Shown here piece after piece: positions 9,347-13,719 of a stretch of 64,000 bases of DNA. The DNA comes from an uncultured delta proteobacterium (GTDB taxonomy: Bacteria > Desulfobacterota > Syntrophia > Syntrophales > UBA2185), in assembly GCA_963729715.1 (NCBI GenBank), contig CAVSPA010000003.1:256001-320000 (forward strand), read 5' to 3'. The first letter of the stretch is position 1. Each line of letters starts with the position of its first letter. The notes beneath the pieces were generated by a model that was not told the origin of the DNA, did not search any database, and saw only the letters and a list, made by a program, of their open reading frames with translations. A program made the translations under genes and the position numbers.

Positions 9347-10819
9347 TTATACGTATCCAAGCCACTTCCAGTATGTGGCCCCTAAGAGAAGAATGACGAG
9401 ATAGGCGATGATTGTTAAAGGAATGCCTGTCCGCATGAAATCTTTAACTTCAAATGTTTCTGTGCTGTATGCCACCATATTTTGTGGCGCATTTACCGGC
9501 AAGATAAACCCGAAGCTCACCACGTACTGTAAAATCATTGTCATGCCCCATACGTTCATGCCCGCCATCTTTACCTCCTGCAATACCGAAATCACAATCG
9601 GTATCATAGCTGACGCCAAAGCGGTGGCACTGGCAAACCCAAGGTGGATGATAATGAGGAAAGCGGCAAGGACAGCCAGAATTGTCAAGGCAGGCATGGT
9701 CTGTAAGCCAAACCAGGTGACAATCATTTTAGCCAGCCAGGCAGCGGCTTTCGTGGAAAGAAGAGCCGATCCAAGGCTTATGCCTATCCCGAACAACATC
9801 AGAGTACCCCAAGGGATTTTTGCCTGTGCTTCTTTCCATGTCATTACACCTACAACAGGCATCAGCATGATGGCCACGGCAGCGAGGGTCGTAGAGGCGG
9901 TATCGAAATTGTGGAGGACCATTTCGGTAGACCAGAAGAATAGCAGTGTAAGCGATACAGCGAACAGCTTCTTCTCGTTCAGTTTCATAGGACCAAGGTC
10001 AGCCAAGGCTTTAGCGATAGTTTCCCGGCTGCCTGGGATTTCCTCGGTGTCAGGCGGCATGACCTTCATCAAGACGTAATACAAGACCACAGACATAATC
10101 ACGGCGAAGGGAGCGGCGGCAATAAACCATTCGAACCAGGTAATCTGTTTGTTAAGAAGTTTATCAATAAAGCCGATGGCAACCATATTTTGTGCGGCTG
10201 CCGTTTTGATACCGACATTCCAAATACTATCAGCCTGGGCGGTGGCGATCATCAGGACGCCGGCAAATTTGCTCTTTTTATCCACATTAAGCGCCAGGAT
10301 AATCCCCATTACAATAGGAACCAGACAAGCGACCCTTGCGGTTGTGCTGGGAATGAAGAAACTGAGAACGAAACCCACAAAAATTACTCCAATCAGAATA
10401 CGGTTAGTCTTCGTCCCTATTTTAGACAGGATGGATAAGGCGATCCGCTTGTCGAGGCCGGTCTGCATCATCGCGGCGGCGATAAACAGCGCCCCGCCCA
10501 CTAAGGCAGTCGCGGGGTTGCTGAATCCGCCCAATGCCAGGGAGAGACCCTTGGAAGTTCCCATGACGCCCTTGGGATTGGCAACATCGGGTGATGTGCC
10601 GAGCAGGAAGACCATAATCGCCAGGATTATGGCGGCGCTGATCGGGTAGGAAACAGCCTCGGTCATCCAGATTATTATCGAAAAGATAAGCATGGCGATC
10701 ATTCTCTGACCCGCTACCGTTAGTCCTTCCGGCGTCGGCATTGCAATGATCCCCAATAACACAACAACACTGATAATAAGGCCATAGCGCTTGCTGAAGG
10801 AATCCTGTTCTGCTTTCAT
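9347..10819 (-). CDS. DASS-family sodium-coupled anion (dicarboxylate) symporter
   Basis: IWMTEAV, IPSTTAR, ASATA, LPVNAPQN, DFMRTG; many TM helices. Confidence 0.88.
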   Translation of the reverse strand: MKAEQDSFSKRYGLIISVVVLLGIIAMPTPEGLTVAGQRMIAMLIFSIIIWMTEAVSYPISAAIILAIMVFLLGTSPDVANPKGVMGTSKGLSLALGGFSNPATALVGGALFIAAAMMQTGLDKRIALSILSKIGTKTNRILIGVIFVGFVLSFFIPSTTARVACLVPIVMGIILALNVDKKSKFAGVLMIATAQADSIWNVGIKTAAAQNMVAIGFIDKLLNKQITWFEWFIAAAPFAVIMSVVLYYVLMKVMPPDTEEIPGSRETIAKALADLGPMKLNEKKLFAVSLTLLFFWSTEMVLHNFDTASTTLAAVAIMLMPVVGVMTWKEAQAKIPWGTLMLFGIGISLGSALLSTKAAAWLAKMIVTWFGLQTMPALTILAVLAAFLIIIHLGFASATALASAMIPIVISVLQEVKMAGMNVWGMTMILQYVVSFGFILPVNAPQNMVAYSTETFEVKDFMRTGIPLTIIAYLVILLLGATYWKWLGYV

Positions 10820-10959
10820 AATTAACTCCCTCTAAAAAAGTTAATTGACCCACGGCTGATATTGTTACCATATTTTTATATAGAGTTCTGTAGTTATTTT
10901 GATTATCACAAATTGTAATCTGTACTATTTCTCTATGCGATGAGGTGAGGATAAGTAGG

Positions 10960-11379
10960 GTATGCCGTGTAAAACGTATGACTAGTCGGTTAAAGTCCGA
11001 CGGTGGGAGTTCTGTAGTTCGCCCACGTAGCTGGAGGGAAGTGTTAAGGGTAACCTGAAGCATTAAGTTCCCTGACAAAGGTTCCTATAGGGAGTCGAGC
11101 AAACCTGCGGGTCGCAGCGTGAGCGAACCTAGATGTAGCCTCAAAAATCACAATGGAGTTGTCGACCCTCTCCTACACAGGGGAAGACCGGAGCATCTAT
11201 CCTGACGAAAACCACCAGAACCGATAGATGGACTTCCGTGGTAACAGGGGTGACACGCAGGGGCAGCCAGACGAGAATGAACGCGGGAGACCCTTGTCGA
11301 TGCTGCGAGAGCGGCAACTGGTGGATATAAGGAAACGAAGTTTCACTGGGTCGGCACGGGAGTCGGAGTTGCCCATAGT
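10960..11379 (+). mobile_element. Group II intron A (outermost): DI, DII, J2/3 and the start of DIII only; interrupted by intron B
   Basis: 5' GTATG; GTCGGTTAAAGTCCGAC DI motif; EBS1 loop CCTAC (11172-11176) complementary to upstream GTAGG (10955-10959); GTCGGAGTTGCCCATAGT DII/DIII junction. Confidence 0.75.
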
Positions 11380-12296
11380 GTGCGCTGGGCAGCGCACTGA
11401 TCAGGAAGGTTAGAGTCCCTCTGGCACCCGGATGAGGGGTGTCATATCCAAAGGCGGGGGTAACGCCTCGCTGGACGCGGAGAACAGATAAGGAGAACCC
11501 TAAATAGGGCACGAAGCCGGAAACGGTGGAAACAGACAAGGGGATGCACCTAAGTTTGATCTCTGTCGACAGACAACCGGAGGACAGGGTGTCCATCGTG
11601 AGATGGAATCCGAAGGGTTTGCGGAGAAATACCGGGCCGTAGTCGAGGGAGCCATCCCAAGGACGAACCGGTCGGCCAAGGGTGGGGCAAGGTCGAGCCT
11701 GCACTATGGAGGCGAAGGCGTTCTCATCCACCCGCCGCACCAGGGTGTTTGCGGGCGGCATGGTAGGGAAGATCAGTGAGTGACCCCAGGAGGACTCACA
11801 TGGTTTCCGGGTGGCACCGGAATAAGTGACCCTATAAGCATAAGCGAAGTGGGAAGCGATGCCATGTGAGTAGTCGGACAACCGAATAATACCTGAAGCA
11901 CGGTGAAAGCCATGTGACCGAGGAATCGGCAGAAGAGTGATCTGGGGAAGGCGGTTGACAAGGGTGGTCGGGGCGAAACGAGAAGCGAGATAAGGAAGGA
12001 TGATGACGAGGATAAGTTCCGTCAGTGAAAAACCCATAAGTGATCATTCGAGGAGACTCGTGGACTGGATCAAACCGACCGGTGGAAGGAAGGCCCACTC
12101 ATTAGTGGACAAGGTTTACAAGATGAAGAAGAGCCGATCTTCGATCCGGTATTCGAGGAAGCCAACTTCGGGTATCGGAAGGGGAGATCATCGAAAAATG
12201 GGTCTTGTGAATCTTGTATCGCTAATACCTTCTATCACATCTGCCAGAAAGGCAACTTTTGTGAAAGCCGGATGCTGGAAAACTGCATGTCCGAAT
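11380..12296 (+). mobile_element. Group II intron B: DI-DV with internally deleted RT ORF; interrupted in DV by intron C
   Basis: 5' GTGCG; EBS1 ACTATG (11703-11708) pairs with IBS1 CATAGT (11374-11379); RT fragments HSLVDKVY / EPIFDPVFEEANFGYRKGRS / GLVNLVSLIPSI; DV AAGCCGGATGCTGGAAAACTGCATGTCCG at 12265-12293. Confidence 0.85.
12000..12245 (+). pseudogene. Remnant of the intron B reverse transcriptase/maturase
   Basis: N-terminal segment, an RT-2a-like segment in another frame and a C-terminal segment joined by deletions; no YADD. Confidence 0.75.
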
Positions 12297-13100
12297 GTGT
12301 GTCCAGCGAAGGCTGGTATGTTCAGCAGGAGTTAGTCCTGCCGGGGAAAAAGACAGAAGCCCCGTAGCTTGGATAGCAGGGTGGCGGGAAACCAAGACTC
12401 TGAAGCCTATCGACAAAGCCACCGAAAGGGTGGTTGCGAGTTACCAGGCCGTAACGAGAGTGAACGCAGAGGTGGCCCCGAAAGTGTGAAGCCCCGGAAG
12501 CCGAGCCTGCATCCGTAAGGCGAAGGCAAGATGAACAGACGAAAACTGGATGATACGTTTGATTCATTCCGGCGGGGTGATAGCGACAGCATGGTAGCAA
12601 GGACAAACCAAGCAACTGGAGAAGCCCTCCTCGTCCCAGGGAGAAATCTCTGGAGCAAGGTAGATTCTATAACCGTGAACAGCGGGAAGTGGATCGAAGG
12701 CGAGAGGGTGGCGGATGGGTTCGTAAGAGCGATGAACCGGAGTAATAGCCGGGGAGCAAAGGAGCCCTGCTGTTAATGATCTTCCGACAACACTGGGAGG
12801 TAAGGGCGAAATGATGAAGGCGCCCGTTAGTTTACAGGACCTGAGGAGGAAGATGTACTTAAAGGAGAAGTCTGAAAAGGCGTGGTGATTCTGCAAGGAA
12901 CCGCTGTGGTTTCGGCTGGGACAGGTGGAATAGGGACTGATTATCAGGCCTGAAAGCGCTGCCAGACTGATAGGTCACATAAACCTTTAGGAGAAGTTAA
13001 CAGGAAAGCATAGTGCGGGAAATCCGCATGCTATGATTGACGAGGCGGGGGCTGGAAACGTACTGAAAGTGCTCAGTGACGCGCCAGTCCTCGACCCTAC
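12297..13100 (+). mobile_element. Group II intron C (innermost): complete DI-DVI, ORF-less, 804 nt
   Basis: 5' GTGTG; DV AAGCATAGTGCGGGAAATCCGCATGCTATGATT (13006-13038) with AGC triad; DVI ending GACCCTAC with bulged A at 13094 and terminal AC. Confidence 0.9.
12811..12950 (+). pseudogene. Remnant of the intron C reverse transcriptase/maturase
   Basis: MMKAPVSLQDLRRKMYLKEKSEKAW* F(W) N-terminus fused near 12893 to a C-terminal ARNRCGFGWDRW segment. Confidence 0.7.
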
Positions 13101-13146
13101 GACAAAATTCTTGCACCCGACGGATCGAAAGTCCGGTACAGCACCT

Positions 13147-13719
13147 TCAGTAGAAAAGTTCTTTGATAAGGACACGACCGGAAGGGTCGAAAAGAAAGCC
13201 CTCCATCTTCAGTAAGGCCCGTTTCATTTCGATACCGCCCTGATATCCGCCCAGTGTTCCGTCAGAGCGAATGGCACGATGGCATGGTATTATGATCGGA
13301 AACGGATTGGTAGCCAAAGCTCTGCCTACGGCGCGTGCACCATAGGCATCACCGAGATGATTGGCGATCCGATGATATGTACTCACACTGCCGCGCGGAA
13401 TTCCATGTTCAGCAAGCAAGACCCTTTGCTGAAATTTCGAGCATAGATCCAAACGAACAATATCGAGAAAGAAGTGGACGTCTTCGCCCGTCAGGAATGC
13501 TGCAATCTGGTCGGCAACAAAATCAACCTCGGCGCAGGAAGAAGGTATGAGATCGGGAAAGGATGTCTGGACAAGCTGCCTGGCCGACACTTTGGGCTTG
13601 GAAAGCAAGGCACGCCAGATTTTCGGCTGACCTCGATGTACTTGCCAAAGGACGGCTACCGAACCGAAGGGTGTCCTGCGAAGGCAGTAGGATGACGGGG
13701 TGTTTTCTGTCTTCTTCAT
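13147..13719 (-). CDS. ogt: Methylated-DNA--protein-cysteine S-methyltransferase
   Basis: IPRGSVSTY, ARAVG, NPFPIIIPCHRAI, LGGY motifs. Confidence 0.9.
   Translation of the reverse strand: MKKTENTPSSYCLRRTPFGSVAVLWQVHRGQPKIWRALLSKPKVSARQLVQTSFPDLIPSSCAEVDFVADQIAAFLTGEDVHFFLDIVRLDLCSKFQQRVLLAEHGIPRGSVSTYHRIANHLGDAYGARAVGRALATNPFPIIIPCHRAIRSDGTLGGYQGGIEMKRALLKMEGFLFDPSGRVLIKELFY

Follow-up and report, generated by a model that had tools for sequence, protein, structure and literature searches.

Inner introns of a decayed group II intron nest appear to belong to lineages that target conserved ribozyme motifs of other group II introns

Locus and features

We report here on a locus in the genome of an uncultured Syntrophales bacterium (G000). 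The window, that is, the whole stretch of DNA that was analysed, comprises 64,000 nucleotides (nt) of contig CAVSPA010000003.1 (assembly GCA_963729715.1, positions 256,001 to 320,000). Its positions 10960-13100 very probably represent a decayed nest of three group II introns, of which the outermost, A, is present by its 5' part only, with B inserted into A and C into B. Based on the sequences that flank relatives of B and C elsewhere, we consider it likely that both belong to widespread lineages that home into conserved ribozyme motifs of unrelated group II introns. An earlier note on this DNA had proposed as much from the pairing of the guide loop of each inner intron, exon-binding site 1 (EBS1), with the intron-binding site 1 (IBS1) upstream of the intron, and the flank and host data given below support that proposal. 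On re-reading, all strings and coordinates that the note had given for the junctions and loops of A, B and C were correct.

Between the transporter gene (9347-10819, minus strand) and the MGMT-like gene (13147-13719, minus strand): intergenic space of about 2.3 kilobases, holding the three plus-strand group II introns
10953-10959, plus strand: IBS1 of A, AAGTAGG, in the 5' exon; pairs with EBS1 of A
10960-11379, plus strand: 5' part of intron A (domains I and II and the 5' side of domain III), the outer host; starts with GTATG and ends with GCCCATAGT
11170-11178, plus strand: EBS1 hairpin loop of A, CTCCTACAC; EBS1 is 11172-11178, in a hairpin context shared with B and C
11373-11379, plus strand: CCATAGT, the sequence targeted by B; lies in the internal loop of domain III of A, on the 5' side of the loop; fits the C-R-T-A-G-T consensus of 67 B-lineage flanks
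11380-12296, plus strand: intron B; starts with GTGCG, holds a reverse transcriptase (RT) open reading frame (ORF) in fragments and ends at the penultimate nucleotide of domain V; domain VI is missing
11701-11709, plus strand: EBS1 hairpin loop of B, GCACTATGG; EBS1 is 11703-11709 (ACUAUGG), the hairpin loop being placed by Rfam family RF02001
12000-12131, plus strand: N-terminal remnant (44 amino acids, aa) of the RT of B, 93% identical to the N-termini of RT/maturase proteins of 441-454 aa
12265-12296, plus strand: domain V of B without its last nucleotide; AGC triad at 12266-12268; its 3' strand GTCCGAAT (12289-12296) is the target of C
12297-13100, plus strand: intron C, directly after GTCCGAAT; complete ribozyme from 5' GTGTG to 3' CCCTAC, with the ORF deleted save N- and C-terminal remnants
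12509-12517, plus strand: EBS1 hairpin loop of C, GCATCCGTA; EBS1 is 12511-12517 (ATCCGTA), located by aligning 33 family members and by its covariation with flanking sequence
12811-12891, plus strand: start remnant of the ORF for the intron-encoded protein (IEP) of C, MMKAPVSLQDLRRKMYLKEKSEKAW followed by a stop; tblastn with the IEP of genome G012 gives 78% identity over residues 1-27
12996-13100, plus strand: domains V and VI of C; AGC triad at 12997-12999, branch A read 7 nt from the 3' end
13101-13146, plus strand: 3' flank of C; ordinary chromosome, the tail of the MGMT-like gene region, and not the remainder of B or A

The three introns of the window

Intron A combines the GTATG start with a match to RF02003 at 10983-11122 (84 bits), and its sequence stops at the 5' side of domain III. 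The genome contains a second copy on contig C18 (44030-44447) that is 100% identical to A over 418 nt and in which domain III continues unbroken, CCATAGT being followed directly by ACCGCTTG. Because this copy runs straight through the site, B can be recognised as a clean insertion into domain III of A. A fold of the unbroken copy places the target of B just above the basal stem of domain III (illustrative; z of -1.4, no better than shuffles). The C18 copy reaches as far as domain V, without a domain VI; a 5' fragment of a C-like intron (86% identical) immediately follows its domain V strand, which ends in GCACGGTT.

The EBS1 candidates of A, B and C share a common hairpin context, in which a stem following CGA carries a 9-nt loop and is followed by GAAG. 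From its loop, A is predicted to recognise GTGTAGG as IBS1; this pairs at 5/7 positions in the window and at 7/7 positions at the copy on contig C7, which directly follows GTGTAGG. The 5' flanks of the four copies of A in the genome are AAGTAGG, GTGTAGG, TCGTAGG and TTGTAAG. Two of the copies (C7:199375-199271 and C18:16960-16851) are short 5' fragments of 105-111 nt, each beginning right after GTAGG and then ending. Like the nest in the window they are truncated at the 3' side, which is unusual for retroelements.

Intron B has the GTGCG start, the EBS1 hairpin and a domain V with the AGC triad and 6 of the 8 lower-helix pairs; domain VI and the 3' end are absent. Its match to RF02001 (11592-11779) is weak, with 22.4 bits (E 0.09) against a gathering score of 32, and we take this type of ribozyme to be chloroplast-like, or IIB. 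Over 400 nt, B is 77-89% identical to 68 metagenomic copies. Full-length relatives carry all parts of a group II intron, three of them pass RF00029, and the copy in the window is therefore a truncated member of the group. Beyond the N-terminal remnant, further pieces of the RT occur in other frames at approximately 12110-12293 (tblastn of protein P0004: 12000-12179, 12110-12202 and 12189-12293).

Positions 3-9 of the EBS1 loop of B pair with the 5' flank CCAUAGU at 7/7 positions, for which the chance is about 6e-5 with one fixed loop and one fixed site. The complementarity to CATAGT of domain III at the point of insertion, as claimed in the note, is thus complete. EBS1 of C was said to pair with the domain V strand of B at only four of six positions, and this is indeed the case; in the longer frame, 5/7 positions pair with TCCGAAT. 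The note had further suggested that a single G>A change (12294) has altered domain V of B. Domain V of B relatives reads GTCCGGTTT or GTCCGGATT, and contigs of close relatives from sequencing run X2 read GTCCG GATT GAAC. The change is supported because close relatives read GTCCG-GATT and distant ones GTCCGGTTT. For public sequencing runs, comparisons were made with contigs only; no run contained half of the sampled words, and parts of the window that are not covered carry no meaning.

Intron C shows the GTGTG start, a domain I match to RF02003 (12323-12459, 129 bits, gathering score 49), the AGC triad of domain V and a 3' end in common with its relatives. Full-length relatives hold an IEP of 427 aa between the positions corresponding to 598 and 599 of C. 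A scan of the window with RF00029 did not report domains V-VI of C, and the homologous segments in two relatives (L002 and L003) score 38 and 37 bits with a gathering score of 40. Of their RT/maturases, B and C retain fragments only; no cognate IEP of B or C type was found elsewhere in G000, whose other group II RTs are about 32% identical. The arrangement also differs from that of a circularly permuted group II intron as characterized in PMC8637638: the upstream domain V is cut before its last nucleotide, no domain VI precedes GTGYG, and in relatives the domain VI of the host follows the 3' end of the inner intron instead.

Relatives of B and their flanks

By blastn against 60 relatives, B gave only a 46-nt match in domain V, and its lineage was therefore sought through the IEP fragment. 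The RT/maturase query led to 80 metagenome loci on short contigs, the best 80 of 532 IEP relatives, and a blastn search of these with the first 400 nt of B located 68 5' ends (n=69 with the copy in the window). Independently of the IEP, a DNA search of 400 genomes of the phylum, with seven genomes matched, yielded five further 5' ends. In total, about 950 genomes were examined in this study. The IEPs of both B (441-454 aa) and C (427 aa) have RVT_1 and GIIM and no other Pfam domain.

The flanks of B-type introns are highly uniform. They end in TAGY in 58/69 copies, or 62/74 when the five from the DNA search are included (four of these five end in TAGT), in agreement with the expectation of the earlier note. 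The hexamer YRTAGT ends 49/68 flanks, compared to 118 of 215547 positions in the same loci. The informative positions are -6 to -1, with the consensus C R T A G T, and +1, which is A in 49/56, and there is weaker conservation at -21 to -13, which corresponds to the GAAGUCRG / GGUGGCGG element of the host. On the other side, what comes after the 3' ends (n=59, ending in CCTCCGACCCGAC) is in most cases A-S-Y-G-A-U-G-A-A-G, with which domain III of the host resumes. Rfam reported a match to domains I-IV (DI-DIV) of a host upstream and on the same strand in 30 of the 40 B loci tested, and the hosts fall into the families D1D4-2 (3), D1D4-3 (8), D1D4-4 (9) and D1D4-6 (10). One locus (L094) contains a B-type intron inside an A-type host with both host flanks present; the B-lineage introns and IEPs of L094 and L097 are intact. 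In another (L112:1130-3540), a single host carries a B-type intron in domain III as well as a C-type intron in domain V.

The flanks that are 100 nt or longer (n=56) form 46 clusters. Inner copies that are 100% (L125/L124) or 99.75% (L132/L127) identical to one another reside in hosts of different classes. EBS1 and flank form seven pairs in 38 copies, six in 26, five in three and two in a single copy at a tandem junction, so that 64/68 copies have 6-7 pairs. Together with the 7/7 pairing at the C7 copy of A and the results for C given below, these figures bear out the assignment of the EBS1 loops. EBS1 also covaries with the flank: CGUAUGA is found with the non-intron site UCAUCCG, and GCUACGG with CCGUAGC. 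A regular expression for the domain III site that the B lineage itself carries located this site in only 17/69 copies.

We also observed a sub-lineage of B with EBS1 GCUACGG or GUUACGG (L140, L149, L139 and the copy at position 1366 of L157). Its members sit between CCGUAGC and UUGRAUAGC, within a motif that D1D4-4 introns conserve in domain I; in C this motif is unbroken, at approximately 12362-12377. Between the domain I and the domain III targets a single base is different, at position -1.

Relatives of C and their flanks

The C family was collected with the 427-aa IEP, which had been obtained from full-length relatives in two related genomes. This gave 79 loci in species-representative genomes, 30 of which have a recognisable C-type 5' end. 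Together with the copy in the window, the C18 fragment, copies from G012 and G019 and seven from the search of the phylum, these constitute 41 distinct copies. As a formal test for insertion in domain V, we required the AGC triad and at least 6/8 lower-helix pairs, anchored at the junction. The test was passed by 21/41 copies, and in a looser version by 778 of 147578 background positions. Three more copies lie in decayed or shifted domain V hairpins (L015, L017 and L004). The note had predicted that the flanks of C homologues would be enriched in domain V, and this was found. The point of insertion is before the last nucleotide of domain V, such that the 3' flank consists of C or U and then domain VI of the host. 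Hosts are of at least three ribozyme types, namely the D1D4-2 type, the A-like D1D4-4 type and the B type. In L003 and L015, a C-type intron in domain V is followed by domain VI of the host.

Within the clade that occupies domain V, EBS1 loops such as GCAACCGUA and GCAUCCGUA are complements of UACGGUU or UACGGAU. Across the C family, EBS1 and flank pair at a mean of 5.87/7 positions, a value reached by 0/2000 flank shuffles. Where copies are located outside domain V (in Acidobacteria, Wolbachia and others), the EBS1 loop is a different one and fits the flank of the copy concerned, at 7/7 positions in L025, L028, L033, L040, L044, L054 and L042. In L029, the intron is located in a transposase-like ORF at the look-alike site CCCGGTT, which agrees at 6/7 positions with the predicted UCCGGUU. 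A quick tree search of the IEPs, in which L031, L035 and L043 were labelled unknown as their 5' ends were not located, concentrated the domain V copies in a clade of 13 rows (SH-aLRT support 90) and in the pair L041/L029. According to record titles, members of the lineages are from Thermodesulfobacteriota, Pseudomonadota, Chlorobiota and Planctomycetota, and one is from a metagenome-assembled genome (MAG) of Syntrophoarchaeum.

Several C-family loci showed additional features. The intron L028:1438-1984 lies 167 nt downstream of a bacterial RNase P RNA gene, and its altered EBS1 is the one that matches the site at 7/7 positions; a by-eye likeness of its flank to domain V was dropped because of this location. 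In the MAG labelled Candidatus Syntrophoarchaeum, an archaeal label (L018), there are three levels of intron matches, D1D4-3 with D1D4-1, D1D4-2 and C type, and the match to the C-type IEP covers a longer stretch than usual. In L047 (approximately 2040-2240), a D1D4-2-type intron starts one base past the FADD codons of a C-type RT ORF, which may be an ORF-homing insertion. Finally, at approximately 12700-12730 of the window and in loci of the C family, the domain III site of the close C clade reads CGUAAG, CGUAUG or CGUAUU in 16/25 matches rather than CGUAGU, the target of B. Distant members of the C family retain CGUAGU or UGUAGU at this site. The altered site could reflect an escape from invasion by B-type introns or plain drift.

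Loss of the 3' side of the nest

The relatives of B run on through GTCCGGTTT-GAGCGGCGGACGG to CCGACCCGAC in domain VI. The window contains neither this part nor the 3' half of A, and neither domain VI of B nor the 3' part of A was found anywhere else in G000. There is no complete twintron in the window: of the hosts it contains the 5' sides alone, and ordinary chromosome follows C. Of the nested stack described in the earlier note, the insertion of B into A and of C into B stands, but a simple triple insertion does not, the stack being truncated on its 3' side and probably recombinant.

Homology to the congener G004 (92% identity) begins exactly at 13101, where G004 reads AAGTCCGCTT up to this point and GACAAAATTC beyond it. 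There is no intron at the site in G004, nor any intron-like sequence in the 400 nt upstream. The site in G004 is 7/8 identical to the usual target of C, GTCCGGTT. A Logan contig spans 12980-13300 without any difference; the run may be the source sample. Insertion of the whole stack into one site was ruled out, because the empty site in G004 follows GTCCGCTT and not the GTAGG of A.

A second copy of C could have been inserted beside the MGMT-like gene at this ectopic, domain-V-like site, between GTCCGCTT and G, and deletion or homologous recombination between it and the copy inside B would join the 5' side of the nest to the chromosome. Such an event between two C copies is the likeliest cause of the loss of the remainder of B and A. 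The reciprocal product was not found in G000.

Two near-identical C-type introns in one MAG (L017 and L020) have swapped host flanks: one has a domain V of D1D4-2 type on its 5' side and a domain VI of A type on its 3' side, and in the other the two types are exchanged. The pattern looks like the product of a reciprocal recombination of inner copies, and from these swapped flanks we conclude that such recombination happens.

Discussion

The B lineage consists of endonuclease-less RT/maturase introns with an EBS1 (ACUAUGG or close variants) that is complementary to C-R-U-A-G-U, followed by A, in the domain III internal loops of group II introns of many kinds. The C lineage has an EBS1 of the form A-A/U-CCGUA that is complementary to the 3' strand of domain V (UACGGUU). 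In both, recurrent insertion at one conserved site of other introns coincides with EBS-IBS complementarity. According to the relevant sections of a review, such introns enter DNA through reverse splicing guided by EBS-IBS pairing and take their primers from the replication fork (Zimmerly & Semper 2015, PMC4424553). The excised intron RNA would accordingly be expected to reverse-splice into DNA where its EBS1 meets an IBS1, after which its own RT would copy it. As the IEPs lack an endonuclease domain, priming is probably from replication forks. A match of 6-7 nt between EBS1 and a motif that nearly every group II intron must keep would provide renewable and harmless sites; with motifs that intron classes have in common, every resident intron would present a site for homing that does no harm. 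The EBS-IBS pairing would likewise allow the inner intron to splice out, thereby restoring the ribozyme of the host.

A number of our observations weigh against homing into introns as a general explanation. For the C family, 17/41 copies are outside domain V, the label "domain V" needs at least five changes on the quick IEP tree, and pairing is imperfect, at 5/7 positions in the window and often 5-6/7 in relatives, with mismatches at -2 and -6. The ectopic site by the MGMT-like gene pairs with the present EBS1 of C at only 4/7 positions. In 10 of the 40 B loci tested, Rfam gave no match to domain I of a host, and the B set is subject to sampling bias, as it was taken from the best 80 of 532 relatives of the IEP, on short contigs from metagenomes. 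The timing at the locus is puzzling in that two copies of A are identical over 418 nt, yet the B inside one of the two has decayed heavily; this could be due to gene conversion, to insertion of a B that had already lost its ORF or to homogenisation in the course of assembly. No sign of activity was seen at the locus, and no B- or C-type RT was found in G000. Moreover, harmless insertions inside introns survive, and this selection effect could add to the pattern.

It is conceivable, but in our view unlikely, that this last effect suffices, with insertion at any short match to EBS1, purging of insertions outside introns and no adaptation of EBS1 to intron motifs. The recognised motif is short, with 6-7 informative nt, and ectopic copies do occur at look-alike sites (L029, the G004-type site and L184), as do the C-family copies outside domain V. 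However, YRTAGT is present at about 5 in 10000 positions and nevertheless precedes 49/68 copies, at an equivalent structural position within the host, on the same strand. EBS1 has been retained across copies from many phyla with identities of only 76-90%, and a change of one base in EBS1 accompanies the move to another conserved motif, CCGUAGC before UUGG in domain I.

Even less probable is the spread of a few ancient twintrons as units or by descent, whereby the recurring flanks would reflect shared ancestry of host and inner intron. Such mobility of composite twintrons is noted as possible by Mohr et al. (2010, PMC2882425), and some loci have both host and inner intron in common, for example L135/L133, L116/L117 and L099/L137, each pair being placed in one flank cluster. 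This explanation is difficult to reconcile with 46 clusters among 56 flanks, hosts in four Rfam DI-DIV families and identical inner copies in hosts of different classes, nor does it account for a host bearing both lineages at their respective sites (L112) or for the covariation of EBS1 with the flank at off-target sites. Chimeric joins through repeated intron sequence as the origin of the nest and its abrupt 3' end can be practically dismissed: G000 comprises 19 contigs with an estimated contamination of 6.5%, introns are repeats and contigs from public runs break at 11379/11380 and 12293-12296, but dozens of assemblies made independently have nested junctions that are base-exact at both GTGYG and the 3' AY, the homology to G004 starts exactly at 13101 and the Logan contig, from what may be the source sample, bridges 12980-13300 with no difference.

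Homing of introns into introns is known already; what differs in the two lineages described here is that ribozyme cores are the targets, that the range of hosts is broad and that the distribution is wide. In Thermosynechococcus elongatus, twintrons consist of ORF-less F3 introns (TeI3a-e) inside F1 introns (TeI4a-e), and the target of F3 lies between two start codons belonging to the host's RT ORF, in domain IV (Mohr, Ghanem & Lambowitz 2010, PMC2882425). As far as that paper's account of the twintrons goes, identical inner copies in diverged hosts were likewise taken as independent insertions, and the ORF-less inner introns need an RT in trans. Hosts there are close relatives of the inner intron within one genome, whereas here they are from four Rfam DI-DIV families, and the lineages are spread over many phyla and metagenomes. 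The target is the RT ORF of the host in T. elongatus; in the present study the targets are the loop of domain III and the 3' strand of domain V, with a motif of domain I in the case of a B sub-lineage.

The nests of Methanosarcina acetivorans are up to five introns deep, without coding exons (Dai & Zimmerly 2003, as summarized in PMC4424553), and their members home into ORFs of related introns. In the review's summary, copies are lost by homologous recombination and introns are called "a perpetual homing site", which resembles our findings, but a single archaeal genome is concerned. Euglena chloroplast twintrons are similar in that group II introns reside inside group II introns and the inner one often must splice first for the outer one to fold (Copertino & Hallick 1991/1993, as summarized in PMC4424553). 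By contrast, they are organellar, degenerate and fixed in genes, and the passages of the review that treat them describe no guide-matched lineages. A lineage tied to a generic and recurrent target is also represented by IIC introns behind terminators and IIB1 introns at groEL stop codons, judging by the pertinent parts of PMC4424553 and PMC12584367; there the targets are terminators, attC sites or stop codons, and here they are other introns. Our literature search found no description of lineages homing into domain III or domain V, and one may have been given earlier by Michel et al. 2007 (Biochimie).

The earlier note had regarded the host introns as disabled. At the level of DNA, and where copies have decayed as in the window, this is correct; judged from sequence, functional disabling of hosts in general is putative. 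We tentatively raise the possibility that group II introns carry parasites of their own, at least two endonuclease-less lineages with guide loops fixed on core motifs that invade any structural class. Invasion could impose selection on hosts to alter their domain III and domain V motifs. The G>A change in domain V of B, CGUAAG and CGUAUG in the close C clade and the domain V of the C lineage, which is unlike its own target, might have been left by an arms race of this kind. A further possibility is that the invaders serve as switches, making the host ribozyme dependent on prior splicing of the inner intron.

If confirmed, these findings would mean that the most conserved parts of the group II ribozyme are also a liability, serving as generic landing pads for other introns. 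This would help to explain the many broken relics of nested introns in bacterial genomes and metagenomes, which confuse annotation and break assemblies. The two lineages provide natural material for asking how far EBS1 alone sets the choice of target, and for studying the sequential splicing of nested ribozymes. Their guide loops are potentially usable for tagging resident introns or for inactivating them.

As for the locus, it is a dead relic of modest significance, and an effect on the neighboring transporter and MGMT-like genes is not evident. Next to the nest, the 93 nt upstream of the transporter gene (10820-10912) recur on contig C5 (427493-427401) with 98% identity, which may represent a duplicated promoter region or a paralogue.

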